This document shows positions 412 to 23,653 of a stretch of 64,000 bases of DNA, piece after piece. The notes under the pieces are model-generated. The model had not been told where the DNA came from, did not search any database, and saw only the letters and a list, made by a program, of their open reading frames with translations. Location: assembly GCA_963739305.1 (NCBI GenBank), contig CAVTZU010000028.1, forward strand, positions 32,001 to 96,000, given 5' to 3'. The position numbers and the translations under genes are program-made. The stretch is from Candidatus Bathyarchaeota archaeon (GTDB taxonomy: Archaea > Thermoproteota > Bathyarchaeia > Bathyarchaeales > Bathycorpusculaceae). Within the stretch, counting starts at the first letter, position 1. Every line of letters starts with the position of its first letter.

Positions 412-874
412 TCGAAACACCAAAGTTAATGCGAAAACTATTACGGTAACTTATAAAAACCAATCGCGTTCCAGGCACGCTTAGCCGCTTCAATCTGCCT
501 TTTCCTTTGATTTTTCCATGTTATTACACGATATTAATATAAGAGATTTTCAAAAGAAAAGTCACTTTCTACTCCTAAGTCAAACCAACTAGCAGTATTG
601 GAACAGTCAGTATTTCCTTGAAAATCTCTATGTCTCGTTTTACGTTCTGAAATCTCAGTAGCGCGCGCTAAGGTGTACAGGGCGTATACTCGATTTCGAT
701 AACATCTATCTATAGTAGATTCTGACATATCCTTCCTGTTCCATTAATGTCCATAGGTGTATCCTGAATCAGGTATCCAGTCTTTCGCCATCCATGAGGA
801 AGCATGTGGATAGTTGTCCGTTAACCGTCGTCCGTCGCGGTCGCCGCCGTGGTTCGCGGTCGTCGTAGTCCGTC

Positions 875-913
875 CGTCGTGGTTGGTTGGATAAAACTTT
901 ACCCCCAAACCCA
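875..913. repeat. att-like site 1: arm X - 13-bp core ATAAAACTTTACC - arm Y
   Basis: GGATAAAACTTTACCCC at 889-905 is repeated directly at 3207-3223; the flanks are inverted relative to site 2. Confidence 0.75.
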
Positions 914-1030
914 AACCCAAAACCCACGGAACCGACAAAGACTAATAATGAGTTGTCCTACGCATCTAGTTGAGGCTTGTCGGTGAGCCTAGGCAGAAAA
1001 ATTTCAAACGCGCGCGCAGCTGTTGGTAGC

Positions 1031-1768
1031 ATGAACAGCAGAATTGTGTTGCTCACTTTGATCTCAACGTTCCTGTTGTTTGCATTGGTTGTGGCAGCAT
1101 CAGCTCAGACGAGGGTAGTAGGCGTTAGTGTGGGAAACAAGTTTAGGTATAGTTTCATCATTAGCTGGAGTTCAAACGACCCGAGTGCTACACCTCCGTC
1201 CTCCCTAATAGATAACAACAATACAGAATGGATGGAGATTTCCGTTACAGGCATTTCTGGCACAAACATAACAGGACAAACGATTCAACATTACAAGAAC
1301 GGGACCGAAACAACCACGGACGTCTGGATAGACTTATACACTGGACCTAGCGGGAATACGTTGCCCTATTTCATTTCAGCCAACCTAGCAGCAGGCGATT
1401 CTGCCTACACTTCGTCTCCATTCAATACTACTTGGATCATGAACGAGACCGTGCCTAGAACGTACATAAGCGGTGCAAGAGACACAAACCACATCAACGC
1501 AACGGCCTCGTATGAGACAGAAAGTTTCCCTACTAACATGTACTGGGACAAGTCGACAGGAGTCTTCGTTGAGTTAATGCAAGAAAACACAAATAAGACA
1601 GACGCATACACTGCAACTTCGTTATTCGACATCCAAATCATCAGTCCAGACCTCTGGACAATCCCCGAGTTTCCCGCATGGATCTCCGCACTGCTTATAC
1701 TCATCGCGCTCACGTCAGCCACAATGGTCATCGCTAGACAAAGACAACCCAAAAGACCCTTCCGCTAA
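1031..1768 (+). CDS. Secreted/surface protein with C-terminal PEF-CTERM-like sorting signal
   Basis: Signal peptide (MNSRIVLL..ASAQ); many N-x-S/T sequons; C-terminal IPEFP + hydrophobic helix + basic tail. ATG 1031 preferred over ORF start 977. Confidence 0.8.
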   Translation: MNSRIVLLTLISTFLLFALVVAASAQTRVVGVSVGNKFRYSFIISWSSNDPSATPPSSLIDNNNTEWMEISVTGISGTNITGQTIQHYKNGTETTTDVWIDLYTGPSGNTLPYFISANLAAGDSAYTSSPFNTTWIMNETVPRTYISGARDTNHINATASYETESFPTNMYWDKSTGVFVELMQENTNKTDAYTATSLFDIQIISPDLWTIPEFPAWISALLILIALTSATMVIARQRQPKRPFR

Positions 1769-2005
1769 ACCTTCTTTCCACAGCGCGCGACCACCAATAG
1801 AACGCAAACACAAAATCAAATACAAATAACCCCTCTTTCCTTTTGTTCGAGATTATGCTTGACCATTATGTCGCGCTCGCATAACGCTCGCGCTCCAACC
1901 CTCAAAAACTGGAAACAACAACTAGAACGCGTTTATAATCTGAAGATAAAACCTTACCTCAACCAATCAAGTGATTTCTTTATAGGGCGAGTCTCTACTG
2001 ATTAC

Positions 2006-2304: not shown

Positions 2305-3102
2305 TTAGGTAGCACCTGTTTCTAAAGTGGTTAAGAGCTGGTCTTCTATCTGTACGTGGTATCTGAAGTGTTCATTCGGGTCCTTTAGCAAGACGTAGGT
2401 CCAGTAGATTCCGAACAACCCAAGAGTTACTAGGTTCAATATGAAGTAGAGAGCAAAGCTTCTGTCAGGCAGTGCCTCCGTTCTTCTTGGCACGGAAAAC
2501 TTGACGCCGCATTTGTCCAGTGTTTTGCTCATGTCTTCCCAGAATCCATCTTCTCTTCTCTCATGCTTGTAGAAGTCCTTCATAAGAAAATACCACACAT
2601 AAAGGGCGGCGATACCCGTGATCACCGACAGAATAGCCCAAAGCACCGCGTTTTTCTCGGTCTCCTCCGCCTTGACTTCTCTCACAGTCCTATCGCCAGA
2701 TGCCAAACCAACTTCCACATCGACACCCTTTCTAGTCGCTATTGCTTTCACTGCGGCCACAACATCCTCAAAAAGGAAAATCTGCCTCTTGAAATGGGCA
2801 TTACGCCTTCGAACCAGCCTGTATATGAGTATTAGATCCACAATGAAACTGACTCCGATAACTACATACACCAATGCTATGATTCCGAAAATACCCGGCA
2901 AAAATTGAGATGCAGAAAACTGACCTGGACTGGAAGTCACCGTTCCAACCGCGAAAAAGAAGGCACCGATGACCAGCGCAAATATCAAGAAACCCATAAT
3001 GAAGGGGAGGAGATAAATGAGTATCCATGCACTCGACATCATCGAGTCGGTCTCCACACGCATCCGAATATCTTTCTTTATGTTTTCATTTTCAACACTC
3101 AA
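2305..3102 (-). CDS. Membrane protein with repeated DUF4234-like segments
   Basis: Repeated LSVITGIAALYVWY / LVTLGLFGIYWTY..NEH segments. Confidence 0.7.
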   Translation of the reverse strand: MSVENENIKKDIRMRVETDSMMSSAWILIYLLPFIMGFLIFALVIGAFFFAVGTVTSSPGQFSASQFLPGIFGIIALVYVVIGVSFIVDLILIYRLVRRRNAHFKRQIFLFEDVVAAVKAIATRKGVDVEVGLASGDRTVREVKAEETEKNAVLWAILSVITGIAALYVWYFLMKDFYKHERREDGFWEDMSKTLDKCGVKFSVPRRTEALPDRSFALYFILNLVTLGLFGIYWTYVLLKDPNEHFRYHVQIEDQLLTTLETGAT

Positions 3103-3198
3103 TCTATTCGCCCCTTTTCGATGAATACATATCCTATCCGACGATTAAAAGTTTTTGACAAAACTACCGCGCGCTGAGTAAGAGAGAGTAAAATAGAG

Positions 3199-3238
3199 TG
3201 GGTTTGGGATAAAACTTTACCCCAACAGCCAGACGACG
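3199..3238. repeat. att-like site 2: inverted arm Y - core - inverted arm X
   Basis: TGGGTTTGGG ATAAAACTTTACC CCAACAGCCAGACGACG. Confidence 0.75.
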
Positions 3239-3343: not shown

Positions 3344-4648
3344 TTATGGTCCTTTCTTGGTGATTTCTTTCACGATGCCCGCGGCCACTGTTGTGCCCAT
3401 GTCCCGTACTGCGAAACGCCCAAGCTCTTCAAATTCCACGAAGGTTTCCATTGCAATTGGGTGAAGCGGTTCCATCTTTACGATAGCCGCGTCTCCCGTC
3501 TTCAGGAACGCAGGTTTCTCTTCGACGACTTGTCCTGTACGTGGGTCGATCTTTCTGATTAGCTCCGTGAATTTGCATGCGATTTGTCCTGTGTGGTAGT
3601 GCAACACTGGCGTGTATCCGGCTGCGACAGCCGTCGGGTGGTAGATTACGATTATCTGTCCGATGAACTCCTTGACTACCGTTGGTGGGCTCGACACGTG
3701 TCCGCATACGTCTCCGCGGTGAATGTCTGTTTTTGCGACTCCTCGAATGTTGAAACCGATGTTGTCGCCTGGTTCGGCCTTCGGGATTCTTTCATGGTGC
3801 ATTTCGAGCGATTTCACTTCGCCTTGTTTGTTCGAGGGCATGAAGATTACGATGTCGTTTTCTTTGATTATGCCAGTCTCAACTCTGCCAACTGGGACGG
3901 TACCTACTCCTGTGATGCTGTAGACATCTTGGATTGGTACCCGCAGCGGTTTGTTCGTGGGTTTTGACGGCACTTCAAACGTGTCCAGAGCTTCGATCAG
4001 TGTCGGTCCGATGTACCATGGCATCTTTTCGCTCTTCTTGACGAGGTTTTCGCCTGTCCAGCCTGAGGTTGGCACGAACGGAATCTTTTCGATCTTGAAG
4101 CCTACCATCTTTAGCATTCTGCTGACTTCGTTCTTGATTTCATTGTAGCGTTCTTGGCTGTAGTTGACGGAGACGTCGTCCATCTTGTTGACGGCGACGA
4201 CTAGTTGTCGTACTCCTAGTGTGAACGCGAGGAATGCGTGTTCTCTGGTTTGTCCGCCTGGTCCGATGCCTGCTTCGAATTCTCCTCTTCTAGCTGAGCA
4301 GAACAGGACGGCACCGTCAGCTTGGCTGGCGCCCGTGATCATGTTTTTTACGAAGTCTCTGTGACCGGGTGCGTCGATGACTGTGAAGTAGAATTTCTTG
4401 GTTTCGAACTTTAGGAATCGAAGGTCGATGGTTACTCCTCGTTCTCTTTCCTCTTTGAGGTTGTCGAGGACCCATGCAAACTTGAAGCTTTCTTTTCCTG
4501 CTGCCTTTGCTTCTTCTTCGAACTGCTTTATGGTTCTCTCGTCGACTGCTCCCGCAAGGTATAGCAGGTGTCCTGTGGTTGTGGATTTTCCGTGGTCAAC
4601 GTGACCCATGATGACGAGGTTTAGGTGTGGCTTTCCGACTTTGCTCAT
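3344..4648 (-). CDS. tuf: Translation elongation factor EF-1 alpha
   Basis: [31 protein letters not shown]; GGAGGAG RBS before ATG 4648. Confidence 0.99.
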
Positions 4649-4717
4649 TTCTTCTCCTCCTATTTTCAATAATTTCCTCTAGATTTTAGTGATTTCGTTA
4701 ACACAACTGTTCGATCA

Positions 4718-4735
4718 GTTATTTTAAGTTTGCCG
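4718..4735 (-). promoter_or_regulatory. Probable BRE/TATA promoter of tuf
   Basis: Minus-strand CGGCAAACTTAAAATAAC about 75 bp upstream of the start. Confidence 0.45.
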
Positions 4736-4874
4736 AGGTTAAAGGTCACTTTGCGTTATTGGATACAAATGGAAACATCGCTGATTCGCGCAGCAAACTT
4801 CCTTTGTTAAGTCTTCCGTTATGACGTCTTAACCGAGTAAAAACGACGATCGGCCATCGTTCTGGTCAGACTGA

Positions 4875-5357
4875 CTACATCATAAAACCATTTCTTGTGA
4901 GAACTATTGCAGTTCCTTTCCTCACAATCGTATTGCATGAAAATTCAACTCCGCCTATACTGAGAGCATCTTTGGTTGCTACGATCGCATGTGGATACCC
5001 TTCAATATGAAAAACGCCATTGACCTCAACCTCAGTTGGTTTGTGAAAGATTAGTTCGAAAATCTTTGCGTTATCACTTTTTCTTGTCAAGGTCATTTTC
5101 TTGATATCGTTCCCTTCCCGTTCCTCTTTGCCTTCGTAGTCCTTATGAATATGAACGAATGAGGTTGACTTGTACACTTTTCCCAACAAATCATTTTTGT
5201 CATCTCTTATTTCAACGTCTATCATAGGTTTAGAATCTGAGGCTCGCAACTCATATTTGAAAAGTTGCTTGTCTTTCCCATTGTCTCTGAAAACTATTGG
5301 TACGTCTACACCAATCAAGCGATTGCTTCCAAAAAGAACGGTAATCAATGATTTCAC
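4875..5357 (-). CDS. Hypothetical beta-rich protein
   Basis: 160 aa ORF with a promoter-like sequence about 30 bp upstream. Confidence 0.65.
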   Translation of the reverse strand: MKSLITVLFGSNRLIGVDVPIVFRDNGKDKQLFKYELRASDSKPMIDVEIRDDKNDLLGKVYKSTSFVHIHKDYEGKEEREGNDIKKMTLTRKSDNAKIFELIFHKPTEVEVNGVFHIEGYPHAIVATKDALSIGGVEFSCNTIVRKGTAIVLTRNGFMM

Positions 5358-5377
5358 CGAGAGTTACTATTCTCTTT

Positions 5378-5412
5378 GTTCAGCTATAACTTTTCCGCAA
5401 AACCAGAAACTG
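5378..5412 (-). repeat. 35-bp direct repeat copy 1 containing a BRE/TATA-like promoter
   Basis: GTTCAGCTATAACTTTTCCGCAAAACCAGAAACTG; 32/35 identical to 5849-5883. Confidence 0.75.
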
Positions 5413-5456
5413 ACTAAGAACCGATAAAAAAGTTGTCTATTGGGGTTGTTCTTAGC

Positions 5457-5801
5457 TTATGCAACGGTATTCCATATTGACTGCGTAATAGGCGTGTGGT
5501 GGTCTTTTATTTTGTGCCATTCTGTCATAAGCTCCTTGATCTCTTTGTGCTCGAAAATTCTCTTCTCCCACTTCTTCATGTCTTCCATGCTTTTGAATTC
5601 ACACATTTCAACGTATGTGCCAGCTACTCCACCGTATTCTTGCTCGAAAATTCGCCACGATATCAGTCCTTCAAAAACCTTCGAGTCTGCCTTCATAATT
5701 TTTCGGAATTTTTTCATCAAAGCCTGAAATTCTGCTCGCTTTCCATCTTTGATCCCGCATGTTAAAACAAAGACGATACCCATATTTCTGTTCACCTCCA
5801 C
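5457..5801 (-). CDS. Dimeric alpha-beta barrel (NIPSNAP/ABM-like) protein
   Basis: IKDGKRAEF..GTYVEMCEFKSMEDMKKW pattern. Confidence 0.65.
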   Translation of the reverse strand: MEVNRNMGIVFVLTCGIKDGKRAEFQALMKKFRKIMKADSKVFEGLISWRIFEQEYGGVAGTYVEMCEFKSMEDMKKWEKRIFEHKEIKELMTEWHKIKDHHTPITQSIWNTVA

Positions 5802-5848
5802 ATCTTGCTATTCGTTCACGCTAGGTCAAACTCTAAGTATATTGTCTG

Positions 5849-5883
5849 GTTCACCTATAGCTTTTCCGCAAAACCAAAAACTG
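5849..5883 (-). repeat. 35-bp direct repeat copy 2
   Basis: GTTCACCTATAGCTTTTCCGCAAAACCAAAAACTG. Confidence 0.75.
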
Positions 5884-6048
5884 GCTTGAAAACATTCCTA
5901 GAGGAGTCTTTTACCGTTTTTCGGGTTTGTGTTTTTCTCTTATTCTTTTTTGGTGTAGTTCCATCGTATGCTTTCTTGGCAATTCTTTCTCGCACACCGT
6001 CAGAGATTTGAGACAAATTCTTAAGGCGTATAAGGCTCTTATTCAAAC

Positions 6049-7620
6049 ATGGCTAAGACCGCATTCGCCTTTAACACGTTGTATTATGGCGATAACCTAG
6101 AAGTTCTTAGAAAGCATTTTTTAGATAACTCTGTTGACCTCGTTTATCTCGACCCACCATTCAATAGCAAAGCTGACTATAACATTCTTTTCAAAGAATC
6201 GACAGGTGAGCAATCAGTAGCCCAGATTCAAGCGTTTAGCGATTTTTGGCATTGGGATAAGAATGCAGAGAGCACGTACTTGGAGATTCAAGAAGATCCG
6301 AACCTAACAGAGATGGTTCAGTTTCTCAAAGCACATCTGGGCAGAAACGACATGATGGCGTACCTTGTAATGATGATAGTAAGGCTAAAAGAACTTCACA
6401 GAGTGCTTGAGCTCACAGGTTCTTTGTATCTTCATTGTGATACAAACGCGAGCCACTACCTCAAATTAGTGCTTGACTCGATTTTTGGGCCTAGGAACTT
6501 TCGGAATGAAATCATCTGGAAGCGCGTCACTGCCCACTCAGATGCGGAAAGGTATGGCAGAGTTGCAGATCGATTACTTTTCTATTCCAAGACTGACGGA
6601 TACAAATTCAACAGACAGAGCAGGGCTCGCAAAGAAGACTACATAAAGACAAAGTTCTCTCATGTAGACAAAGAAGGCAGACATTTCAGACTCGATAATC
6701 TAAATCCGCCTGGAGGTCGAGGACCTATTTACGAGTTTCACGGGATAACCAGACCCTGGAGATTCACGCAAGAAAAGATGCTGCAACTTGAAAAGCAAGG
6801 TCTGATTTATACTAAATCAAGAATACCGCAACTTGTACGATACTTAGATGAGCTTGAAGCGAAAGGCGGAGCAGCGGTGCATGAGATTTGGGACGATATT
6901 CCGCCTATCAATTCAATGGCTAAGGAACGGATGGGCTTTCAGACGCAGAAACCGATACCGTTGCTTGAACGAATCATTTCGGCGAGCAGCAACGAGGGCG
7001 ATTTGGTTCTTGATCCATTCTGTGGTTGCGGAACGACTATCATGGCTGCTCAAAAACTGAAAAGAACATGGATAGGAATAGACATAACGCACCTGGCAAT
7101 TTCACTCATCAGATCACGACTTAAAGAAATTCATATAGTGGCTAACAAGGACTATAAAATCATTGGCGAACCTGCCGATTTTGAAAGTGCGAGAGAACTA
7201 GCAGAAACAAATCCGTATCAGTTTCAGTGGTGGGCTCTTTCGTTGATTGATGCAAGACCTGCTGGACAAACAAACGAGAGTCAACAAGGAAAGAAGGGTG
7301 CAGACAAGGGCATAGATGGATGGTTGACTTTCCGAGAGACTGACAATCTAAATCTGAAAAGAATAGTGATTCAAGTGAAGGGTGGAACACATATAGGTGC
7401 TCAGATTGTGAGAGACTTAATCGGAACGGTTCAAGCTACTAAATCAGCAATGGGCATACTCATAACTTTGTATGAACCCACAGAACAGATGAAGCAAGCA
7501 GCGATGGAAGCAGAATACTACGAATCGCCAACATGGGGACACAAATACCCAAAGATTCAGATAATGACAATTCCCGAACTGCTTAAGGGCTCGAAACCCA
7601 TTCTGCCACACACTCACTGA
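6049..7620 (+). CDS. N6/N4 DNA methyltransferase (beta class) fused to a C-terminal Mrr-like PD-(D/E)XK domain
   Basis: YLDPPF, TQKP..LL, LDPFCGCGT; C-terminal DKGIDG..IQVKGG. Confidence 0.92.
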   Translation: MAKTAFAFNTLYYGDNLEVLRKHFLDNSVDLVYLDPPFNSKADYNILFKESTGEQSVAQIQAFSDFWHWDKNAESTYLEIQEDPNLTEMVQFLKAHLGRNDMMAYLVMMIVRLKELHRVLELTGSLYLHCDTNASHYLKLVLDSIFGPRNFRNEIIWKRVTAHSDAERYGRVADRLLFYSKTDGYKFNRQSRARKEDYIKTKFSHVDKEGRHFRLDNLNPPGGRGPIYEFHGITRPWRFTQEKMLQLEKQGLIYTKSRIPQLVRYLDELEAKGGAAVHEIWDDIPPINSMAKERMGFQTQKPIPLLERIISASSNEGDLVLDPFCGCGTTIMAAQKLKRTWIGIDITHLAISLIRSRLKEIHIVANKDYKIIGEPADFESARELAETNPYQFQWWALSLIDARPAGQTNESQQGKKGADKGIDGWLTFRETDNLNLKRIVIQVKGGTHIGAQIVRDLIGTVQATKSAMGILITLYEPTEQMKQAAMEAEYYESPTWGHKYPKIQIMTIPELLKGSKPILPHTH

Positions 7621-7728
7621 AACATAAGTACTATTCTTAAAGAAAATCGCGTATGCCTAAGACTATTTCACGTTCAAAGTCTGCCCAAAGGTTTTATTTC
7701 TCTAATGACAGTCTAATGAATGGTTTGA

Positions 7729-8541
7729 ATGGAAGACAAAATAGCGGCATATCAACAGCGACGGAAAGATCGAACAAGATCTTTGAGGATAATAGTCGTA
7801 TTTTGGGCAGCCTATGTGACCATAGCCACCTTAGTAACGTATTATGAACGCGTTACTTTCTACATTTTTTCTCAATCGGATATATAGGAGCATTTGTAAC
7901 ATTTTTTGCGTTTTTGAAAGCCCACTCTCCAGAAAAGTATGAAATCAGGATAAGTTATGATTTCTCAACAGCAATGTCATTTCTGAAGATGAGTGAAAAG
8001 GAAAAAGGACGAGCAGCAGGTCGTCATAGAAGGAAGGCTGCCAACTACATCAGAAGTGCGCTGGACTGGGTGAGTAGGCTCTCAAACCTCGCTGAACGCT
8101 CTGAGATAATGGAAAAAGAGATGTGTGAAAGACTCGAGACATTCAGAGTCGATGTTGAGAAATTCGTTTTGCCGCGAATAGCAATTCAAGAAGACGCAAA
8201 TCGTCTTGAACCAATGCTCAGTGGATTTTCCAAATTCTTCGCAGATCAATGGGAATCATATGGAATGAAACAACTTGACGAGATAAACAAGAATGTCCAA
8301 AGTTTGGGCAATCCTTCAAAACAATTGGGAACTTTTCGGACTGCCTTGCGTAGTTTTGTCAAATATAAAGCCGATAACTCTGCTTCTTTCGTCGATTCTA
8401 GGCTTTGGCGCAGCAACTGCCATCATTTTAGGCATTCTCACTGTTGACGCATTTGGATGGATCAGATCGAACGTTGGTTCTTTCATACTTGCTGGTACTG
8501 CACTAAGTGCATCTATCGCAGGGATATTCACGAGAAGCTAG
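7729..8541 (+). pseudogene. Membrane protein gene with two frameshifts
   Basis: MEDKIAAYQQRR..VVFWAAYV (from ATG 7729) joins ORF 7914..8447 by a frameshift near 7865, and joins the hydrophobic tail of ORF 8293..8541 by another near 8368. Confidence 0.6.
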
Positions 8542-8653
8542 AAGCGGGCATGCTTTCATGTTCATTTTTACTTAGGTCTCTCTCAGTTTGCTTAATGTCG
8601 TTTCGGGAAAGGTCTTTTATCTGAAAATCGGGGCAGGTTTCATTGTGGGCTTG

Positions 8654-8857
8654 ATGGAGACAAAACAGAAAGCAATACTTCATTATCTTCAGAACGAACC
8701 GGTTGAAATTCCAAAAGACGATCTGTTCGTCAGCATAACCCTTCACAGATTGCCCGCGACGTTGGTGCGGTTGTTCGCTTTGAAAGTTGCGTATCAATAT
8801 CCCGGCGGAATAAGCGAAGCAATCCAAGACCTAATGAAGAAAGCAATCAGAGATTGA
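8654..8857 (+). CDS. Small ribbon-helix-helix-like DNA-binding protein
   Basis: VSITLHRLPATLVRLF..GGISEAIQDLMKKAI strand-helix-helix pattern. Confidence 0.65.
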   Translation: METKQKAILHYLQNEPVEIPKDDLFVSITLHRLPATLVRLFALKVAYQYPGGISEAIQDLMKKAIRD

Positions 8858-8950
8858 TATTTACTGCGCGCAAAACAGGCCCAAACTGTGCCAGAACAGC
8901 GGTATTCTGCCAAGTTTTCTGGTTACGAAGCGTTCTTGAGCTTACCTACC

Positions 8951-14999: not shown

Positions 15000-15688
15000 A
15001 TCATCACACCATTATCGTGTTTTCGGTTGCGACAGACAGAGTTCAACTATTTCTTTTATCTTCTATTAGGATTTTTGGTTTAACGTGCTTCTCGGAGATA
15101 TCGCAAAGCGCAGTGCGTGCGCCTAAACCCCTAAAAATGAGCGCAAACCCTACGATCTATTTTTCTTAACAGAACAGCGCGCCGCAATCTTCAATTACCA
15201 TGCTTTTCACATTTGTTCGCACTTGATGTTACAATAGTGGACAAACGATCATTTCGGCGCCGATATACCGCGCGTGATACAAACGTTCAGTTTTCATTCA
15301 ATAACACTTATCTATCTGTGTACGACGGCACCTCTTTAAGGGGGGTATGGAGGTGAAAACGGACGAAATCCAAGTACAGGAAACTTTTGCCAAGTGAAGT
15401 TTACGTCGGTGTATCTGGCAGAACTGGACTTCCATATGGTAGAGTCAAATGGTCCAGGAAAAGACGATAGACTGCTTCATCGCTTTTGCCCAAACGGAGT
15501 GTTTCGCGCACTGAAGGCAACACGCGCTGGTGGATGCAAGCGCTACAAGTTTTCTGCAGATGAGTGCACAGAAATCTTAAATTTCCAAGGCAACAGAAGA
15601 CAAACGAGAGGTCCAGGTTGAGTAAAAGGAGAATGATTTGTGGAGATTTAGCCATTGTAGGAATAGTAGCAATGGGACAAGCGGTAAT

Positions 15689-16651
15689 ATGGAAAGCAAG
15701 ACAATCGCAGCTAGCCTCTTTTCTCTATTCTTAGTTCTCAGCCTGGTTTGCTCTTGTTCGGCTCAGAACGAAACTAACACAGCCCACGTATCGGACAAAG
15801 CAGTTTCATTTGTTCTTTCAAACTTCAATTCGACAATAGGCTTATGTTCTGAAGTCCCACACGGGACGCCAAACAGCCAGAATTTCAATGGCGACGTTTT
15901 CTGGATAACAAGCGATAACCTTCTAGCATATGCACTTCTGCAACAGTATAACGCATCAGTGGCCAACACCATACTGCAAACCATGAAAGCCTATGCAGCA
16001 GCTCATACCGACTTGCCAACAGATAGTCGGGGAATTCCCGTAAGCTATAAGCATGAACCCATCATAAACGATTCTTTTCCAGATGACTTTCAACCAAGAG
16101 GATACGTCTATTGCGACCTAACTTTAACTGACTCGTATGAAGTCAAAATTGAAGTGAATAACGGTTCGATCTGGCCAGACTGGCAAAACTATTCTGACGA
16201 ACTGGCATGGATGGGTTTGAGCTGTCTTAACAAAGGGGGCGCGCTCTATTATTCTCAGGCGCAGACACTCTATTATCAGATGATGAGTATGTGGGATGGC
16301 AAAGGATTCAATGACACACAATATCGCCATCTTGGATATTACGAAACATTCAAGCTAGGTCTAGCCATTTACCTAAGAAAAGACTTGGGCCTAAATCAAA
16401 CACAAGCAGAACAGGAGATGGATTCAATTATCCAACTATGCAAGAAAGAAAACGGTGGAATCTGCGTCAACTACAACGACAATTTAGACACTTGGGGAAA
16501 TCCAAATACAGAAACCACCGCATTAATTGGATTAGCTTACACCGAAGTGACTAACCCAATTCCAGAGTTTCCATCATTCCTAATTCTGCCACTATTCATG
16601 ATAGCAACGCTTCTAGCAATCACAGTCTGCAAGAGAAGACGTGTGACCTGA
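15689..16651 (+). CDS. Secreted alpha/alpha-barrel-like protein with PEF-CTERM-like signal
   Basis: Signal peptide; SDNLLA, WDGKGF, YETFKLGL, NTETTAL; C-terminal IPEFP-TM-KRRR. Confidence 0.75.
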   Translation: MESKTIAASLFSLFLVLSLVCSCSAQNETNTAHVSDKAVSFVLSNFNSTIGLCSEVPHGTPNSQNFNGDVFWITSDNLLAYALLQQYNASVANTILQTMKAYAAAHTDLPTDSRGIPVSYKHEPIINDSFPDDFQPRGYVYCDLTLTDSYEVKIEVNNGSIWPDWQNYSDELAWMGLSCLNKGGALYYSQAQTLYYQMMSMWDGKGFNDTQYRHLGYYETFKLGLAIYLRKDLGLNQTQAEQEMDSIIQLCKKENGGICVNYNDNLDTWGNPNTETTALIGLAYTEVTNPIPEFPSFLILPLFMIATLLAITVCKRRRVT

Positions 16652-17024
16652 GCGAGCCCGATTTGAAAGCAAGCGTCGATATAGAAGGCTGCTCCGCTAG
16701 AGAGATGCACATTCAGAAGACGCCAGAAAACGAAAAATGTTGAACTTTCCAGAGCCAAATAGCGCCGCAGTCCGAAACTCTCTCACCACGACGATACTTT
16801 TTGTGGTGCTTGATCGCGAGTCAACCGTTATGAAACTATTTGCTGAGGTTGAGAACGAACTAACCACTACTGAATCTCTTGTAACACTCGAAAATTGTTC
16901 AACTTTTTACGACCCAATAGCAGCGCAGTTCTGCCTAGGTTCCGAGCTTCCGTACTCTTTACGACCAAGTCACGTAGAACAAACGATTTTTGATTTGATT
17001 TGGCTTTGCTTAACTACCTCCTCC

Positions 17025-17213
17025 GAGAAGCCACGGCTTCTCTCGGAAGTCAAACGACGTTCGTCTTCTACATGATTCCTACCGAGTGGTATGTGGGGAG
17101 TAGCCCTTTCAGAGCTGCCCAGGCTAGGCAGACGACGATGGAAAAGCGAGTTCTCGATCTGAAAAAATGAGGCATCTTCGCTATTACCTCTTACCGAGAA
17201 GTTCGAACTTCTC
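17025..17213. repeat. Pair of 18-bp palindromes GAGAAGCCACGGCTTCTC (17025-17042) and GAGAAGTTCGAACTTCTC (17196-17213)
   Basis: Both are flanked by CC..TCGGA; the second lies 40 bp beyond the integrase stop. Confidence 0.85.
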
Positions 17214-17253
17214 TCGGAGCTAAATTGGGATCGAGGTGCAAAAAAAGAGATTC

Positions 17254-18378
17254 TTAAGCCTCGTTTGAGAGCAAGAGTTTTCCAGAGGGCAACGTGGCTA
17301 CGTAGCGAAAGCCTTCTTCTAATTTCTGCCCAAGTTCTGACTCTTTGACGATGACTTGGCATTTTCCGCTTCCAGGCGGGCACTGTTCTGGGTTCTTCTT
17401 GACTTTCTGCCTGAGCATTTGTAATTCTTGCATCCGTTTGAGAACGTCTTCGGGCAAGCGTTTTTTCAACTCTTCGATCTCTTTGGCTCTCTTGTCGAGA
17501 TCGATGTTCCGTGTAAAGCACGTTAGTTCTTGGACTTTCGCGTAGTCGGTCCTTAGAGAGTCCACCGAGACGTATGCGCTCTCGCTCGTGACTTTGCCGA
17601 CGATAAGCTTGAATTTCTCTGTGCTCATAACCGATGCGAGACGGTCGATTAGGAATTTCCTTAGTGCGTGAAACCTTATCCGCTTATCACCTGTCGCTAG
17701 TCCAGCTTTCTTTACCAAACGCTTGACGACGCGTGAAAGCATGATTTCTGAGCTATAATCTAGCATTTGGTCTGACTGCGAAGTTTTCGCTTCGCGCGCG
17801 AGTTTTTCGAGCATCTGCTTAACGATTGGAACCGCGTCGTAATCGAGAAATGGATATGCTTTGACGGATTCTTTTCCCGTGTTCAGGGGGCCTATTCCGA
17901 TCGGTGCTTCGCGCGAGAGGTACGGCTCGAAGTCGCCTCGACGCAGCTTTAAGAAATCTGACGGACGCAGGCCGAGACTCTTGCCGACTCTGATGATATA
18001 CTTCTCTGGCAAGTCGCCTACGTCGTCTAGTTTCCGTAAGTCTTCTGTCGAAAACCTGTAATCTTCTTGCGCGTTGTGCGTTTCTCCGAGCCGTTTTGTC
18101 TCAGTTCGCCTAAATTGCAGTTGAGTTCTGTGGTAGCTAAAGAAACTCCGAGCAGCCGTTATTATGACTCTCGCTGAGTTCGGTGTTAAGCCGCTGTCCA
18201 GTAAGGCCTGTTTGCAAGCCATGACTTTTCGTTCCCAAGCGTACTTTACTTGGTCGTCGGTCGAGCTAACTGACTGCTTGCGATCTGCTAAGATTTCGTC
18301 GCCTGTCATCTTGACGAATCTTAAGAAATGGATAAACGCTTCTGAGTAAGTTCGACTCGTAGACTTTTTCTGAGCCAC
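17254..18378 (-). mobile_element. Tyrosine recombinase/integrase
   Basis: GLRPSD (R), TGKE (K), FHALRK (HxxR), LIVGK, ESAY (Y); N-terminal SAM-like core-binding domain; the frame stays open upstream to about 18438. Confidence 0.92.
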
Positions 18379-18494
18379 TAGCCATTCGTTCGTCGCGTTA
18401 TCGTTTGGGTATGATATTCTTTCTTTGTTTCTCGTCTTCTAACTTCCTTAAGAAGACTAAAGGCACTGCCTCTCGTATAGATTTCCGACAAATT

Positions 18495-18522
18495 AGGTTA
18501 GAAATTTTAAGATTTCTAACAT
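18495..18522. promoter_or_regulatory. 11-6-11 inverted repeat (dif/operator-like) upstream of the integrase
   Basis: AGGTTAGAAAT TTTAAG ATTTCTAACAT; 10/11 arm symmetry. Confidence 0.6.
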
Positions 18523-18670
18523 ACAAAGTCGGTTTGCTTTGTAGCTGCGCCGTAAGAAAAGTTGACTCGCGCGCGCGAATGAGTAGGATTTTGAGTTTAT
18601 GTTTTCATATTTTTTCCTGTCCTGCATTTTAAAATATGCGCACAAACATCTATTCTAGTGGGAAACTACC

Positions 18671-19573
18671 ATGCCCATAAACGAACTTGACCTCCTTCTA
18701 ACTTACAAATGCAACCTAGAATGCGATCACTGCTTTGTCTTCGGCAGCCCAAATGCAAGAGGGGTAATGAAAATTGCTGGCATACGAGAAATACTGAAGG
18801 AAGCAAAAAAGATCAGGAGCATTGACTGGATATACATTGAAGGTGGCGAACCTGTTCTTTACTATCCAATTCTCTTGTGGGCGTTGCGTGAAGCAAAGAA
18901 GCAGGGGTTCAAGACTGGCTTTATTACGAATGCTTATTGGGCAACGTCGATTGAAGACGCAAAAGAATGGCTGAAACCTATTTCAGAAATAGGCATATCG
19001 GACGTGATAATAAGCGATGATCTCTTCCATTACGGCAAGGAAGAAGAAAGCCTTTCCAAATATGCTTTTCAAGCAGCTAAAGAGTTAGCGGTGCCTGCTA
19101 GTAACATCAGTATAGAGCAACCCAAAGAATATATGGCTGGGAAAGAATGGAAAGGGAAGCCTGTCACAGAAGGGGCTGTGCTATTCAAAGGAAGACCTGC
19201 TGAAAAACTCGTCGAAGGCTTGCCGAGGAGACCGTGGCAAGAATTTGACAAGTGCTTAGACGAGGATTTCTCCAACCAGAAGCGGGTGCACATCGACCCG
19301 TTTGGTTATGTTCACCTGTGTCAAGGCATAACCATGGGAAACATGAAGAAGACCCCGCTTCACCGATTGTTTGAACAGTTCGACCCACACAAGCACCCTA
19401 TATGTGAACCAATTCTAAATGGAGGCCCAGCTGAACTTGTCAGAACATACCATGTTGATCACGAAGAAGGCTACGTGGACGAATGCCACCTATGCTATTC
19501 AACCCGGCTGAAACTGCGAAAGATATTTCCACAGATTCTTGCACCAGACCAGATGTACGGAGTCTTCACTTAG
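18671..19573 (+). CDS. Radical SAM protein
   Basis: CNLECDHC motif, EGGEP, TNAYWA, C-terminal Cys cluster. Confidence 0.93.
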   Translation: MPINELDLLLTYKCNLECDHCFVFGSPNARGVMKIAGIREILKEAKKIRSIDWIYIEGGEPVLYYPILLWALREAKKQGFKTGFITNAYWATSIEDAKEWLKPISEIGISDVIISDDLFHYGKEEESLSKYAFQAAKELAVPASNISIEQPKEYMAGKEWKGKPVTEGAVLFKGRPAEKLVEGLPRRPWQEFDKCLDEDFSNQKRVHIDPFGYVHLCQGITMGNMKKTPLHRLFEQFDPHKHPICEPILNGGPAELVRTYHVDHEEGYVDECHLCYSTRLKLRKIFPQILAPDQMYGVFT

Positions 19574-19594
19574 AGCACGCGCAGAAAAAAGGAA

Positions 19595-20446
19595 TCATGG
19601 GTAGTGCTGGTTGAAGTGGCCGGCTAGGATGATGGCATCGTAGATGTCGATTGTGTTGTCACCGTTGATGTCGGCGTTGACATTCCAATGCAAATTGCCC
19701 ACGTGGGTGTTGAAACCTCCTGCAAGCGTTATCGCGTCATAAATATCCACGGTGAAGTCGCCATTCACGTCGCCTGGCATGGTCAAGACCATGGAGGTGC
19801 CAGCTGTCAGATTGCCTGCAAGTGCCCCTATGTTGCAGTTGCCATAGGCAAAGCCTGTGGTGTTCCAAATGAATTGGACGGTTGCGGAGTTGTCAGTTGC
19901 TAAGGTAACGTTTTGTGATCCTAGGATAGTTGTGTTAGCGTAGGCTGTGACGTTGAAGGTCTCACTTTGGTTGCCCATGTTCATGAGCATTACGTTCACA
20001 GGCAGTTGACAACCTTGACCAACAACATTCTTAGATGGCGCAACGCTCATCACAGCGCTCGCGCTGCACAGGCTGCCATTTATCCAATCTAGGAAATAGG
20101 TTTGTGAATGCTCATCAAAACTAATCGTTCCGTTGATTACAACCATGTTCCCGACAACAAACCCTTCGGGAAATGTGCATCCCAGTTGCCCATTAAAAGT
20201 CAAAAACATAAAAGAACCACATGGATTCGGGTCAAGGCTTGGGTCAATGCTGTCTACAATTATGCCAGCGTAGACCGCGCTCACATTAGCGTAGCTTAAA
20301 GTACCGACCACGGTGTAAGTCGCCACAGTCGCGCGTGCGCGCGCACCCCCTAGGCAGGCTACTAAAATGATACAGATTATTCCAAGCGCGATAAGGACGC
20401 CTTTGCTGGCGATTTTCGTTTCTTTTGTTTCATTCACGTTTGACAT
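19595..20446 (-). CDS. Mosaic surface protein: N-terminal TM, OB-like segment, CARDB/Ig-like domain, dockerin-like repeat
   Basis: SKNVVGQG..NMGNQSETFNVT; GDVNGDFTVDIYD..ADINGDNTIDIYD. Confidence 0.8.
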   Translation of the reverse strand: MSNVNETKETKIASKGVLIALGIICIILVACLGGARARATVATYTVVGTLSYANVSAVYAGIIVDSIDPSLDPNPCGSFMFLTFNGQLGCTFPEGFVVGNMVVINGTISFDEHSQTYFLDWINGSLCSASAVMSVAPSKNVVGQGCQLPVNVMLMNMGNQSETFNVTAYANTTILGSQNVTLATDNSATVQFIWNTTGFAYGNCNIGALAGNLTAGTSMVLTMPGDVNGDFTVDIYDAITLAGGFNTHVGNLHWNVNADINGDNTIDIYDAIILAGHFNQHYP

Positions 20447-20546
20447 CCTACCATAGCAGTGTCCAGTGTAAGATATAAGTCCGCGCGCCCTACTGGCGAC
20501 ACGCAGAAATAACGGGTTGATACAGAATAGTCCTGCGATGATGTGA

Positions 20547-20717
20547 ATGGTGGATTATGTAAACGGGAGCGCTAATGACAACTGGTACTGGTGCAAGAAC
20601 TGGACTCAATACACCACGTACATCTACGAACAGCTATCAGGAACGCGACGTCCACCAAAGTTACACCTTTGCCCTCAATGCAAAGCAAAGGAAGACAACA
20701 AAGACTGCACAACATAG
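20547..20717 (+). CDS. 56-aa Cys/Trp-containing small protein (not in the ORF track)
   Basis: MVDYVNGSANDNWYWCKNWTQY..LCPQCKAKEDNKDCTT. Confidence 0.55.
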   Translation: MVDYVNGSANDNWYWCKNWTQYTTYIYEQLSGTRRPPKLHLCPQCKAKEDNKDCTT

Positions 20718-20898
20718 CGCATGCTCGCGCCTACTCATATCCGTTTATTCAGTCGCTGACGGCGCTCAACCACCCACAGCGCACGCTCAAAGATGTTCAA
20801 AAAACGATTTGAGGCATAAAATTGCTAAATGTCGCATGCGCTAACACGTTGAAAACTAATCGCGAAACTGGGGGTTTCTAGCGAAGGTCGATAGGTTT

Positions 20899-21142
20899 GT
20901 GGGAATAATACTAGTGAATACGGAGAACAAAGTTCTTCTGCAACTTAGGTCAAAGGATGACTATCTTTATCCAGATTGCTGGACCTTGCCTGGCGGGAGG
21001 GTTGAGGAGGGTGAAATTCTTGAACAGGCCATTGTCAGGGAAGTGAAGGAGGAGTTGGGGTGGGATCTTCGCGGATGCGGTCTTTTCAGGACTATTGTTT
21101 TAAACGATTCCGATGGGATCATGGAGCGCCATAAGCGCGCGC
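20899..21142 (+). pseudogene. NUDIX hydrolase truncated at a (GC)4 tract
   Basis: Complete Nudix box GGRVEEGEILEQAIVREVKEELG; the sequence becomes non-Nudix-like after GCGCGCGC at 21135-21142. Confidence 0.75.
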
Positions 21143-21217
21143 AAATTCCAAGATCAGGCAGGCATCCTGTTGCCCCGCTTCGTAGAGAACTGGGAAAACG
21201 GGGCAAGCCCTGCTCGA

Positions 21218-23281
21218 TCATGCAATTTGCAACGTAAAACGTTCAATTTGCCGAGCACAGTCTGATGGGTTCTCCACGGTTATCATTTCTTTCTGGAAAT
21301 AACCCGGCAACAGACGTTTTACGTAGTGCTGAATGGCTCGATCATCCAGAATCACGATGTATCCTTTATCTTCCGCAGATCTGTGGACACGCCCGCAGGC
21401 CTGAACCAGTCGAAGTATTGCCGGGGTTAGATAAGCATAGGTTCTCCCATTTCCTGGAAACTGTTGTTCAAGATAATCTACCAGTGATTCCTGGTAAGCA
21501 TCCCACGTTGCATAGGGCAACCCGACAGCGACAACTCCTTTCAACACGTTGTGTGGGTAGTCCATTCCCTCGCTCAGTTTGCCACCCATCACCCCGTAAA
21601 GAACGCTGTTGTTTGAGCGTGTTAGCTTCTGGATCACATCATTTCGCCTAGTGTCCTGCTCTTCCATGATTATTGCCCTGTTCGTCTCTATTGAAGAGGC
21701 AACCCTTCGCATCAATTGATAACTCGTGAAGAAAACCGCCAGGTTACCCTGAGTAGAGTCCGATATGGCTTCAATATATTTCTTCCATTTGTCAAGCATT
21801 TGGTCAGTTCTTCTCTTGAACTCTGACGACACGTCCTTGGCTACCATTATGAGCCTGTTCTTTCGTGGAAAAGGAGGATCAAACTCTTTCAAACAAGTTT
21901 GGTTTGCCTTGTATAGCATTAAATCTCTATAGACGTCGGGAGGTGACAAGAAACCGCTCATGAGAATGGTTCCTCGTGCTTCCCTCAAGACGAGATCGAC
22001 GATTTCTCTTCCGTCGAAACTTCGGACTTCTAGCGTAACTTGGTCTTTCTGGCCTCTTTCGATCAGATGGAAGTATTCTGATCCAACGTTCTTGAAGAAG
22101 CTCTCCATGAACGTGCCGATTCGAAAATTGTAGCTCGCGATCCTCGTTGAACCAGATTTAAGCTGCTTCTGTTTGACACTTTCTCCATACTCTTGAAGCA
22201 TCGCAGCGGCTTCCAGGCCTGAGACACCATTGTGAGCTAGAAACAAGTCATTGATCTCTTGAGGGTTAAGTCGCTTGAGCTCTTCATTTCTCAAAGTTTG
22301 ACGGGCGTGCCTAAAAATGTCCTCCATCACAAGGTTCAGAAGTTCTCTGACCGAACCTACCGACTCATGCTCGAAGATTTCAGTCTCCTTAACGGCTCGT
22401 TCCACGAAGCTCATCGTCAACTTGTCGGAAAGAAGCTCTCTGGCAAAAGTTGGAAGATTGTGCGCTTCATCGACAATCAGGAAAACTTTCGAAAAGCCAG
22501 ATCCGAAACCCTTCATAATCGTCTCCCTGATCTTGGGATCAAAAACGTAGTGATACGTCCCAAGAAAAACATTCACTCTCGGCAGAACCCTCTTGAGGGC
22601 TTCGTGAGGGCAGAACCCGCGTTCAGACATCACGTCAACGGATTCCTCTGGCGCAAGAATTCTTCGGGCGCATTCAAGAGCCAATTCTTCCGCCTCTCTT
22701 TTGCCCTTCACAAGGTTCATGTAGAATCTGCAGAAGGGCTTGGTCGACGACTCGCAGTTATCCTTCAGCCTCTTGCACTCTTCAAAAAAGTCTACATAAG
22801 ATAAGTCGCCCCGAGCGTTCATGGGACACATGTCCTGTTTGCTGAAGAATGAGATTGCTGAAATGTTTCTCGAGAGCGCTTTCAACTCCTTGAGGTATAT
22901 GTGCAATTGACTTCTGGTTCTGAAGCAGATCACAAGTCTGTTTTCTTCGAGCTGAGGCAGAACGGCAAGCAGGGATGCGAGCGATTTGCCTACGCCACAA
23001 GGAGCACTACCGAAGAAAACCTCTCTATTTTTCAGCGCCTCGGTTGCTGCTTGAACAAACTCCATCTGTTCTTTACGAGCTTCATAGTTCTCAGGGAGAA
23101 GTTTTCCTTTCTGGCTCGTCCCTTTCGCCTTTTGGCGAACAGTTTTGGGAAGCTCAGAAACCCTGTTTGCAGATATCAGATAAGTGCCACAGTCACTGCA
23201 AAAACGGTTACTTTCATACTCTTCTGAAGAATAGGTTCGGCCACAAGTGTGGCAAGCATAGTTTCGGGGCAAGCTTTTCAA
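21218..23281 (-). CDS. XPD/Rad3/DinG-family Fe-S DNA helicase with N-terminal zinc ribbon
   Basis: APCGVGKS, Fe-S cysteines, DEAH, SEGMD, QACGRVHR. Confidence 0.95.
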   Translation of the reverse strand: MKSLPRNYACHTCGRTYSSEEYESNRFCSDCGTYLISANRVSELPKTVRQKAKGTSQKGKLLPENYEARKEQMEFVQAATEALKNREVFFGSAPCGVGKSLASLLAVLPQLEENRLVICFRTRSQLHIYLKELKALSRNISAISFFSKQDMCPMNARGDLSYVDFFEECKRLKDNCESSTKPFCRFYMNLVKGKREAEELALECARRILAPEESVDVMSERGFCPHEALKRVLPRVNVFLGTYHYVFDPKIRETIMKGFGSGFSKVFLIVDEAHNLPTFARELLSDKLTMSFVERAVKETEIFEHESVGSVRELLNLVMEDIFRHARQTLRNEELKRLNPQEINDLFLAHNGVSGLEAAAMLQEYGESVKQKQLKSGSTRIASYNFRIGTFMESFFKNVGSEYFHLIERGQKDQVTLEVRSFDGREIVDLVLREARGTILMSGFLSPPDVYRDLMLYKANQTCLKEFDPPFPRKNRLIMVAKDVSSEFKRRTDQMLDKWKKYIEAISDSTQGNLAVFFTSYQLMRRVASSIETNRAIIMEEQDTRRNDVIQKLTRSNNSVLYGVMGGKLSEGMDYPHNVLKGVVAVGLPYATWDAYQESLVDYLEQQFPGNGRTYAYLTPAILRLVQACGRVHRSAEDKGYIVILDDRAIQHYVKRLLPGYFQKEMITVENPSDCARQIERFTLQIA

Positions 23282-23386
23282 AGCAAACTAGGCTTCAGAC
23301 CAGCAACATATACTTTGTTGGCATGGTAAACGCAAAAACGCGAGGAACACGCGCTGTACGGGTTCCTTTTTGAGTTTCAGTCCTGC

Positions 23387-23653
23387 TCAAGTGCGCGCTC
23401 CGGATTGCAGATCTTTGGTTGATGTCGCCCCGTCTTTCCGCCAGAGCTTTCTGAACCCTTCTTCCTGCTCTGGTGTAATCTTGAACCCGAGTTTTTCTTC
23501 CAGAAAAATTCCTACTAGGCGAACTGCAAAATAGGCTTCAGCCGAGTTATTTGTCCTCTTCTGTAACAGATCCAGAACCTTCTTTGACACTCGCAAGCAT
23601 TTCTGTATATCAACCGGAACTTTGGCAGAAGTCTCTGTCTTTTTTGCGCACAT
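23387..23653 (-). CDS. Hypothetical protein
   Basis: 88 aa helical ORF. Confidence 0.6.
   Translation of the reverse strand: MCAKKTETSAKVPVDIQKCLRVSKKVLDLLQKRTNNSAEAYFAVRLVGIFLEEKLGFKITPEQEEGFRKLWRKDGATSTKDLQSGART

Follow-up and report, generated by a model that had tools for sequence, protein, structure and literature searches.

An iterated intergenic G/C palindrome in a Bathyarchaeia lineage and its association with junctions in flexible DNA

Background

The palindrome HIP1 of cyanobacteria (GCGATCGC) is the nearest known thing to the element described here, a short archaeal palindrome with a core of alternating G and C that recurs in a 64,000-nucleotide stretch of DNA (the window) from a Candidatus Bathyarchaeota archaeon of peat or soil. 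Copies of HIP1 reportedly lie at the ends of a deletion in the Synechococcus metallothionein locus. Like the archaeal element, HIP1 is an octameric palindrome, hugely over-represented in one lineage, unsettled in function and partly conserved between genomes, as passages in two papers describe (PMC5861425; PMC4390886). The REP/BIME (REPIN) sequences are alike in occurring as hundreds of intergenic palindromic copies, often just past genes, and in being targets of insertion sequences, according to sections of PMC1525189 and PMC3333891. Integrons resemble the archaeal case in holding promoter-plus-gene units with a recurring boundary element, and in that units are gained, lost and swapped singly or in groups. 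In yeast mitochondria, mobile G+C clusters, which are short GC-rich palindromes in AT-richer spacers, spread and are end points of recombination or excision. Alternating G/C runs as such, the Z-DNA-prone (CG)n fragile sites, promote instability, as part of one survey reports (PMC4060949).

Bathyarchaeia are abundant and uncultured, and gene gain and loss in their genomes are largely unknown. An earlier note on the window had proposed that G/C tracts clustered in its first 23.4 kb, around a tyrosine-recombinase-like gene, are scars or joints of an integron-like process that captures, deletes and fuses pieces of DNA. We found that this idea holds as a statistical, genome-wide property of the tracts and fails as an island-specific system driven by a recombinase. 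With moderate confidence, we propose instead that the tracts are a lineage-specific, iterated intergenic palindrome, with the consensus (T)A-GCGCGCGC-T(A), which acts as a hotspot for breaking and joining DNA.

Throughout, a tract means 6 nt or more of alternating G/C. In the assembly G000 (2.32 Mb in 36 contigs), the window corresponds to C28:32001-96000, and the genes for aEF-1alpha and XPD mark the organism as an archaeon. G000 was compared with 10 sister species of its genus, including one assembled as a single 2.35-Mb contig, with 10 genomes from other genera and with 40 other genera of the family; its relatives are titled Bathyarchaeia metagenome-assembled genomes (MAGs). For tests of synteny (495 reciprocal best hits with G000) and of homology ends, 800 kb of the single-contig relative G001 were used, and G000 was compared with itself at thresholds of at least 150 bp and at least 80% identity. 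G000 is also a MAG, with redundant overlapping contigs that are 95-99% identical (for example C7/C31, C23/C35, C29/C35, C2/C3/C6 and C13/C17). We read these contigs as strain variants, so that the bin contains at least two strains. Such mixing agrees with the 7.8% 'contamination' figure and affects any statement about copy number.

Results

A palindrome iterated in intergenic DNA

A genome-wide count bore out the expectation that tracts are commoner than a Markov background predicts and strongly favour the DNA between genes. G000 has 899 tracts: 575 in its 471 kb of intergenic sequence (12.2 per 10 kb) and 324 in its 1,846 kb of coding sequence (1.76 per 10 kb), a 7-fold difference. No hexamer exceeds its expected count by a larger factor than GCGCGC (observed/expected 1.55 with a 4th-order Markov model, about 2.4-2.7 with lower orders). 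A tract is present in 34% of convergent spacers, in 24% of divergent and in 22% of tandem ones. The commonest intergenic octamer is GCGCGCGC, with 152 exact copies in intergenic and 26 in coding DNA; the opposite phase, CGCGCGCG, has 18 and 6. The top intergenic 10-mers are TAGCGCGCGC and AGCGCGCGCT, and the latter is present in 82 copies versus 4 for its reversed control. The flanking base at +1 is T in 72% of cases, and that at +2 is A in 48%. The unit of the motif is about (T)A-GCGCGC(GC)-T(A), a 10-12-bp palindrome with the core GCGCGC or GCGCGCGC that gives TAG in either reading direction; written as a duplex, it is TAGCGCGCGCTA. A search for an extended motif, a miniature transposable element with inverted repeats (MITE) or recombinase arms found no conserved sequence beyond ±2 nt of the tracts.

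The octamer GCGCGCGC occurs 29-464 times in each of the 10 sister species, 0-14 times in nine of the 10 genomes from other genera, and 53 times in the tenth. Across the 40 other genera of the family, AGCGCGCGCT is present in 35-63 copies in five and in at most one copy in 24, of which 12 have none. As a lineage-specific short palindrome far above Markov expectation, the motif is a highly iterated palindrome (HIP). Patterns termed GC6 and GC8 are generally suppressed in prokaryotes, as far as the relevant part of a survey goes (PMC4060949), and by that account this lineage is unusual. A literature search without subscription journals or supplementary files found no description of the motif in archaea.

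Tracts and flexible DNA

Flexible regions such as window positions 1-23800 are dense in tracts, and the syntenic core is poor in them. Spacers between syntenic genes of G001 hold 8.6 tracts per 10 kb (10% of spacers carry one), compared with 16.9 at synteny breakpoints (36%) and 16.6-20.1 beside genes without an orthologue (34-36%). The contrast persists when spacers are matched for orientation: among divergent spacers, a tract is present in 1 of 21 syntenic versus 14 of 34 breakpoint spacers, and density is 2.1 per 10 kb in syntenic versus 17.4 in non-syntenic ones, an 8-fold difference. It also persists among spacers matched for length at 300-600 bp (5 of 20 syntenic versus 18 of 25 breakpoint) and is gone in spacers of 50-150 bp (3 of 46 versus 1 of 26). 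Tracts are densest at C28:96-116 kb, where the genes include YcaO/ThiF, glycosyltransferase and flippase genes, which is flexible-genome content. Genome-wide, 79 genes have a tract on both sides, compared with 33 expected.

Junctions at tracts

The supposition that homology and synteny breakpoints fall on tracts was upheld in part, as an excess over matched positions. In the self-comparison of G000, a tract is found no more than 10 nt from 43 of the 373 distinct homology ends, versus 4.6 at locally shifted positions (maximum 11 in 200 trials). Under a stricter null, in which random positions are drawn within the same spacer (500 trials), 28 of 233 intergenic ends lie within 3 nt of a tract, versus 6.7 expected (maximum 15), and 42 of 233 within 10 nt, versus 13.5 expected (maximum 24). 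Ends of contigs behave similarly, with a tract within 30 nt of 10 of the 72, where about one is expected.

Single events can be read at some of these junctions. Two strain-variant contigs differ by an indel: C2 reads X-GCGCGCGCG-4.2 kb-GCGCGCGC-Y and C3 reads X-GCGCGCGC-Y, the 4.2-kb segment holding cohesin/dockerin and solute-binding/dockerin genes. Y adjoins X in none of the other species used to polarise this indel. Contigs C13 and C17 have 98%-identical flanks and carry different cassettes between shared tracts, namely two NosD-like genes (2.0 kb) versus a STAND ATPase-TPR gene (2.9 kb); on the right side, about 20 nt beside the tract also differ. Four independent gene-unit copies of 200-400 bp are bracketed by tracts and their paralogues have none. 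Terminal inverted repeats were sought on tract-bracketed gene units and not found (4-16 of 30 positions match).

In the window, a unit holding a radical-SAM gene has 91%-identical homology to G005 that begins exactly at the tract 18568-18577 in both genomes. One peat-metagenome contig passes through this tract and diverges only at about 18504. The truncation of a NUDIX gene at a tract, claimed in the earlier note, is confirmed: relatives of 141-160 amino acids match residues 1-78 alone, the tract begins in codon 79, and a full-length NUDIX relative has unrelated sequence where G000 has the tract. A conserved gene of C2/C3 is followed after its stop by a hairpin and a T-run in eight other species; in G000 a tract lies on its TAG, and new DNA follows. 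At both the NUDIX gene and the C2/C3 gene, the tract arrived along with the event and did not precede it. The pattern of a target-site duplication, with one copy at the empty site and two flanking the insert, appears at a MITE of G001 (see below) and probably also at the unpolarised 4.2-kb C2/C3 indel.

Tracts and genes of the window

Genes called in and beside the tract-rich part of the window include the following (positions in window coordinates):

1031-1768, + strand: secreted or membrane-anchored protein with no Pfam family, a tract on each side
3344-4669, - strand: aEF-1alpha, a conserved anchor gene
6049-7620, + strand: N6/N4 DNA methylase fused to an Mrr-type nuclease domain
10676-11197, - strand: LAGLIDADG homing-endonuclease fragment
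11400-12310, - strand: PDC-S18 (DUF5655) defence-candidate gene, split into two open reading frames (ORFs)
12446-14848, - strand: SMC/AAA ATPase, LmuB-like (Lamassu)
17254-18378, - strand: tyrosine-recombinase-like ORF (Phage_integrase E-value 7e-5, below the Pfam cut-off)
18671-19573, + strand: radical-SAM gene with a weak pVip-like match
19595-20446, - strand: dockerin-domain protein, member of a multi-copy family
20899-21134, + strand: NUDIX hydrolase gene, 5' half (residues 1-78 of about 145)
21218-23281, - strand: XPD/Rad3 helicase
23800-24978, + strand: first conserved gene past the variable region, adjoining aEF-1alpha directly in G002

The window holds 28 tracts, 23 of which start in 1-23400 and five in 23401-64000 (40.6 kb). 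Seventeen of the 18 positions reported earlier were recovered, with offsets within about 2 nt; the remaining one, 19575, is merely CGCGC within GAGCACGCGCAG and falls below 6 nt. Six further tracts, mostly within ORFs, lie at 11778, 16239, 17793, 17910 and 20330/20337. Crude gene calls place 17 of the 23 between genes and six inside called genes, the tract at 1009 being scored 'in a gene' solely because the longest ORF begins at TTG 977. The tracts in the first part of the window are:

661-668: GCGCGCGC, with flanks A..T
1009-1017: CGCGCGCGC, 13 nt ahead of ATG 1031
1783-1789: GCGCGCG, 14 nt past the stop of 1031-1768; the 71%-identical G001 homologue also has a tract at that homology end
2240-2249: (GC)5, between convergent genes, 6 nt past the stop of 1859-2233
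3168-3174: CGCGCGC, between 2305-3102 (- strand) and aEF-1alpha
8866-8871: GCGCGC, 8 nt past the stop of ORF 8588-8857
10593-10598: GCGCGC, first of a pair spaced 55 nt
10654-10661: GCGCGCGC, 14 nt past the stop of the LAGLIDADG fragment
11380-11385: GCGCGC, 14 nt past the stop of the PDC-S18 C-terminal piece
11778-11783: CGCGCG, in the gap separating both PDC-S18 pieces
12365-12370: GCGCGC, 54 nt upstream of the PDC-S18 N-terminal piece
12418-12426: GCGCGCGCG, 19 nt past the stop of the LmuB-like gene
15177-15182: GCGCGC, in a divergent spacer
15269-15274: CGCGCG, in a divergent spacer
16239-16244: GCGCGC, within ORF 15638-16651
17793-17800: CGCGCGCG, within the integrase ORF
17910-17915: CGCGCG, within the integrase ORF
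18568-18577: (CG)5, at the start of the radical-SAM-unit homology to G005
20330-20344: two adjoining tracts, CGCGCG, T, GCGCGCGC, within the dockerin ORF (codons 34-39, about 100 nt from the ORF start at 20446)
20482-20488: CGCGCGC, 35 nt upstream of the dockerin gene
21135-21142: GCGCGCGC, at the NUDIX cut-off point and 75 nt past the XPD stop
23393-23398: GCGCGC, 111 nt upstream of XPD

At the intergenic and coding rates of the whole genome, the island should hold 10.8 tracts and has 23, and the rest of the window should hold 14.1 and has five (intergenic: one versus 8.1 expected). Thus, the clustering reported earlier is real and goes beyond chance. Among sliding windows of 23.4 kb (n = 325; median 6 tracts, 95th percentile 19, maximum 32), the island window, with 22, is high and not unique. 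The tract-rich part has a G+C content of 42-47%, below that of the rest of the window. Closeness to stop codons also stands, the tracts at 1783, 2240, 8866, 10654, 11380 and 12418 each lying 6-19 nt past a stop. As to three genes described as bracketed on both sides, 1031-1768 is so; 11400-12310 is so as well, as one broken PDC-S18 gene; and 18671-19573 has a true tract on the left alone (18568-18577) and none on the right. Against the PDC-S18 profile (302 positions), 11876-12310 covers positions 2-136 and 11400-11675 covers 217-301, positions 137-216 being absent and a CGCGCG tract lying in the gap. In the dockerin ORF, where the earlier note saw apparent domain joins at two tracts, neither of the multi-copy segments (19595-19785 and 19834-19963) has a tract at its end.

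The orthologue of C28:26920-27990 is no more than about 1 kb from aEF-1alpha in six sister species, and the other neighbour of aEF-1alpha in G002 is the orthologue of window gene 23800-24978. Therefore, G000 carries inserted or variable DNA at window positions of about 4700-23800 and in a further stretch left of aEF-1alpha. No tract occurs in the aEF-1alpha loci of G001, G002 or G008, each about 5.4 kb long, and the insertion there in G000 has more than 17. The single XPD/Rad3 gene of G000 lies in the variable region between tracts and is at an unrelated locus in G001, G002 and G008; the G001 gene has a tract at its 3' end too. The radical-SAM protein (window 18569-19578) is 90-92% identical in other species of the genus, with a different context in each genome, and the DNA identity of aEF-1alpha across species is just 82-85%. 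This difference, combined with the shifting contexts, points to recent transfer.

The content of 6049-14848 (methylase-Mrr, LAGLIDADG fragment, PDC-S18 and LmuB-like SMC ATPase) is typical of a defence island. In three peat metagenomes, whose contigs compared with the window are short unitigs, the flanks are nearly identical and there is almost no contig cover over 6049-14848, or about 6.0-18.4 kb. Short segments of 40-120 nt (window 1805-1925, 5372-5420, 5848-5892 and 16557-16653) have copies 80-100% identical on many G000 contigs and in sister genomes; peat contigs stack on these segments, diverging where the segments end. Scans of window positions 1-26000 for Rfam families and tRNAs gave no matches.

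Discussion

A proposed hotspot for breaking and joining

The data show that the motif is specific, concentrated in flexible DNA and in excess at junctions, that inserts have duplicated flanks and that a transposon uses the motif as a target. The motif is a preferred point of breakage and rejoining: insertions carry one copy of it on each side, like a target-site duplication, and deletions and replacements end on it. A staggered cut across the palindrome, followed by fill-in and joining, could give this outcome; alternatively, two tracts might anneal as an 8-bp, all-G:C microhomology. Either route would not need the local tyrosine recombinase. If each insertion adds a tract, variable regions would come to accumulate tracts.

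Several results weigh against the proposed hotspot. Over 80% of homology ends lie away from tracts. Strain-variant alignments (93 kb) cross 49 internal tracts, so the earlier suggestion that homology should break at tracts is only partly borne out, and most tracts are not recent breakpoints. At 19 junctions between copies that are at least 93% identical, a tract is present in both copies in four cases, in one copy in one and in neither in 14; a promoter-like motif, GGGTAAAGTTTTATCC, lies at three of the 19. Cross-species ends at 86% identity or above lie at tracts in 4 of 17 cases, versus 1.7 expected (maximum 5), which is not significant, and the signal in the 800 kb of G001, where 28 of 78 intergenic homology ends are within 10 nt of a tract versus 4.4 expected, is mostly due to a single MITE family. 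Six syntenic spacers have a tract in each of the two genomes, versus 0.96 expected (Fisher's p 5e-5), and one position-conserved tract is common to G001, G002 and G008; some tracts are therefore old or selected, and a selected function fits these as well. The junction statistics of G000 rest partly on redundant strain-variant contigs of a MAG, and the gene calls are crude, being longest ORFs scored by codon usage.

The hotspot also calls for a putative cutting and joining activity, and Ku-LigD does not track the motif across genera. G000 has a complete Ku operon (C32:50048-53119) coding for a LigD primase-polymerase (PolDom), Ku and an ATP ligase fused to a LigD phosphoesterase domain. A complete operon of this type is present in 5 of 41 family genomes (one per genus), and among the relatives Ku occurs in 8 of 11 genomes of the genus versus 0 of 10 from other genera. 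As a cause, Ku-LigD was rejected: Ku occurs in only one of the five other motif-rich genera, and three of the four other Ku-positive genera have at most one copy of the motif. Given this family-wide mismatch, Ku is neither necessary nor sufficient.

The GGGTAAAGTTTTATCC motif is flanked by GGGTTT/CCCAAA repeats and was seen at window 880-920 and 3213-3235, at C2:12751, C8:9042 and C8:6376 of G000, and at the ends of C25 and C30. Its many copies across the genus, together with its place at 3 of 19 junctions and at two contig ends, mean that it may be a second junction-linked element.

A stronger form of the break-and-join idea, to which we give a low probability, is that gene cassettes are captured and shuffled without a recombinase: a sequence-specific staggered cut in (T)AGCGCGCGCT(A) would be filled in and joined to any fragment, and the palindrome would thereby be duplicated. 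If this is true, every insertion makes a new docking site and islands grow as tract-separated arrays, amounting to an integron without attC or IntI; the self-complementary, all-G:C octamer at each joint would let any two units later be deleted, swapped or inverted.

Alternative explanations

The tracts may instead be a selected cis-element of gene units, serving as the site of a dimeric nucleoid, insulator or regulatory protein, or as a 3'-end or stop-reinforcing signal, TAG...CTA being a stop in both directions; junctions would then coincide with tracts because surviving rearrangements break between units. The 10-12-bp palindrome with its defined flanks suits such a site, as does placement: over the first 20 nt past stops, tracts reach about double their average density in spacers, and they are scarce within 50 nt upstream of starts. 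The partial conservation of position between species noted above (six shared versus 0.96 expected) fits selection too, tracts are no more variable than their surroundings in the strain variants, and HIP1 has been argued, in part of PMC5861425, to be kept by selection. On the other hand, density is 8-fold lower in syntenic divergent spacers, divergent spacers still have tracts (in 24% of cases) despite lacking 3' ends, and the core is nearly free of tracts, as the single intergenic one in the rest of the window (8.1 expected) illustrates. A tract also sits at the truncation of the NUDIX gene, and the gene-unit copies are bracketed where their paralogues are not. We consider a selected cis-element unlikely.

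Tracts might also be by-products of one transposon family, that is, target-site duplications of IS5-like elements and MITEs, empty targets and excision footprints, with register-shifted joins giving (GC)3, (GC)4 and (GC)5. G001 has a 210-bp MITE with 24-nt terminal inverted repeats starting GCGCGC (77 terminal-repeat hits versus 0 in a reversed control). Its parent element of 1,080 bp (G001 C1:389080-390159), which has a split IS5-type DDE transposase, carries GCGCGC at both ends, and an 872-bp derivative with a cupin gene (G001:524434-525305) also ends in GCGCGC. An empty site in G010 reads AGCGCGT once, where G001 reads A-GCGCGC-MITE-GCGCGC-T; the element therefore either duplicates the tract or targets it. 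The tracts are dominated by forms with an initial G, a final C and an even length of up to 10 nt, in keeping with such an origin. Relatives of the IS5-like transposase were found in three of five motif-rich genera versus one weak hit in five motif-free genera, which is suggestive but incomplete as evidence for an agent; the motif-rich G055 and G056 gave no transposase hit. G000, however, with about 900 tracts, gave two weak terminal-repeat hits and has one or two transposase genes, and MITE ends make up only about 7% of the tracts even in G001 (77 hits versus roughly 1,170 extrapolated). Tract-bounded cassettes lack terminal inverted repeats. Insertion sequences that aim at a pre-existing host palindrome are known for REPs, according to the relevant part of PMC1525189, and we read the IS5-like element as probably an insertion sequence of this kind, targeting the host palindrome. 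An origin of the tracts from this one family seems quite doubtful to us.

The IS5-like/MITE family is also present in G002 and G008. G000 has in addition a non-coding repeat of about 230 nt, with an internal inverted repeat and often ending in (degenerate) tracts, perhaps a second MITE or else a gene for a small RNA. Its copies are:

C18:31163-31396
C8:44381-44611
C17:52473-52684
C20:123046-123253
C7:12098-12415
C36:67731-67898

It is very unlikely that neutral mutation or biased repair made the tracts, whether by dinucleotide slippage or by a methylation-linked very-short-patch ratchet with selection clearing coding DNA. The motif is lineage-specific, as such a process could make it, and a biased-repair ratchet has been proposed for over-represented HIP palindromes, as passages of PMC4390886 set out. 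The 49 aligned tracts show no length change of ±2 nt (35 are identical including flanks) and are therefore not a slipping microsatellite. We reject a microsatellite on these grounds, the absence of slippage polymorphism being joined by lengths that favour 6 and 8 (intergenic tracts of 6, 7, 8, 9 and 10 nt and longer number 178, 103, 170, 83, 38 and 3) and by the lack of expansion in other dinucleotides, whose repeats drop 15-20-fold from three to four units where GC drops only to 0.7. A ratchet driven by an m5C methylase was likewise rejected: PF00145 was not found in G000 or G001, and it turned up in two of the 10 sister genomes and in none of 10 from other genera (Vsr was not searched for). 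Strong preferences of phase and flank also speak against a neutral origin, which leaves the coincidence with junctions and the patchiness of the tracts unexplained.

The integron-like cassette system of the island suggested by the earlier note, with the local tyrosine recombinase acting on (GC)n, is largely refuted, and we give it very little credence. The recombinase-like ORF 17254-18378 is 190 nt from the tract at 18568, and tract-bracketed gene units resemble cassettes. However, the motif is genome-wide (899 tracts) and occurs in all 10 sister species and in at least five other genera, its flanks have no conserved arms, the recombinase match is below the Pfam cut-off, and one peat contig diverges at about 18504, not at the tract. 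No att-like repeat of at least 10 nt was found between 4700-6100 and 18379-18680, and three tract pairs folded on both strands as DNA gave no attC-like hairpin (z -0.56 to +1.11; the tracts alone pair).

An assembly or library artefact is scarcely credible, despite the redundant contigs and tract-enriched contig ends of a MAG, when the same densities occur in all 10 sister genomes (the single 2.35-Mb contig included) and in other genera, 8-10 nt is far below assembler word sizes, and peat contigs from public runs match tract-bearing stretches of the window with 0-1 differences.

Uses of the motif

A signature of 10 nt present at a sizeable share of the junctions where DNA was inserted, deleted or replaced would help to map flexible regions in MAGs. 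The motif is a concrete sequence with which to seek the responsible nuclease, transposase or binding protein. It also matters for assembly practice, as contigs of these organisms tend to break at it.

Comparison with known systems

Integrons have an attC site folded over 57-141 nt, and the archaeal boundary has neither such a fold nor a core beyond the palindrome. Nor is there an array beside one integrase; tract-bounded units occur on every contig and in both orientations. REPs are imperfect hairpins of 20-40 nt tied to RAYT transposases, whereas the archaeal unit of 8-12 nt is too short for a hairpin and has flanks that are not conserved, which sets it apart from REP/REPIN units (RAYT genes were not searched for). 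The yeast mitochondrial G+C clusters differ in being organellar, longer (tens of nt) and hairpin-forming. Target-site duplication by the IS5 family and its MITEs is a closer match in one respect, GCGCGC being duplicated around the IS5-like element and the 210-bp MITE with one copy at the empty site; yet most tracts and tract-bounded gene units adjoin no terminal inverted repeat. With regard to Z-DNA, archaeal tracts of 6-10 nt are short, and a structural effect alone would not favour GCGCGCGC over CGCGCGCG (152 versus 18 intergenic copies) or the A..T flanks.

HIP1 itself is conserved within and between ORFs and linked to cognate methylases, according to passages of PMC5861425. The archaeal motif, by contrast, is 7-fold intergenic, concentrated in flexible regions and found at junctions, in genomes (G000 and G001) in which PF00145 was not found. 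With these differences, it would be an archaeal counterpart to the long-unexplained HIP1 palindrome.

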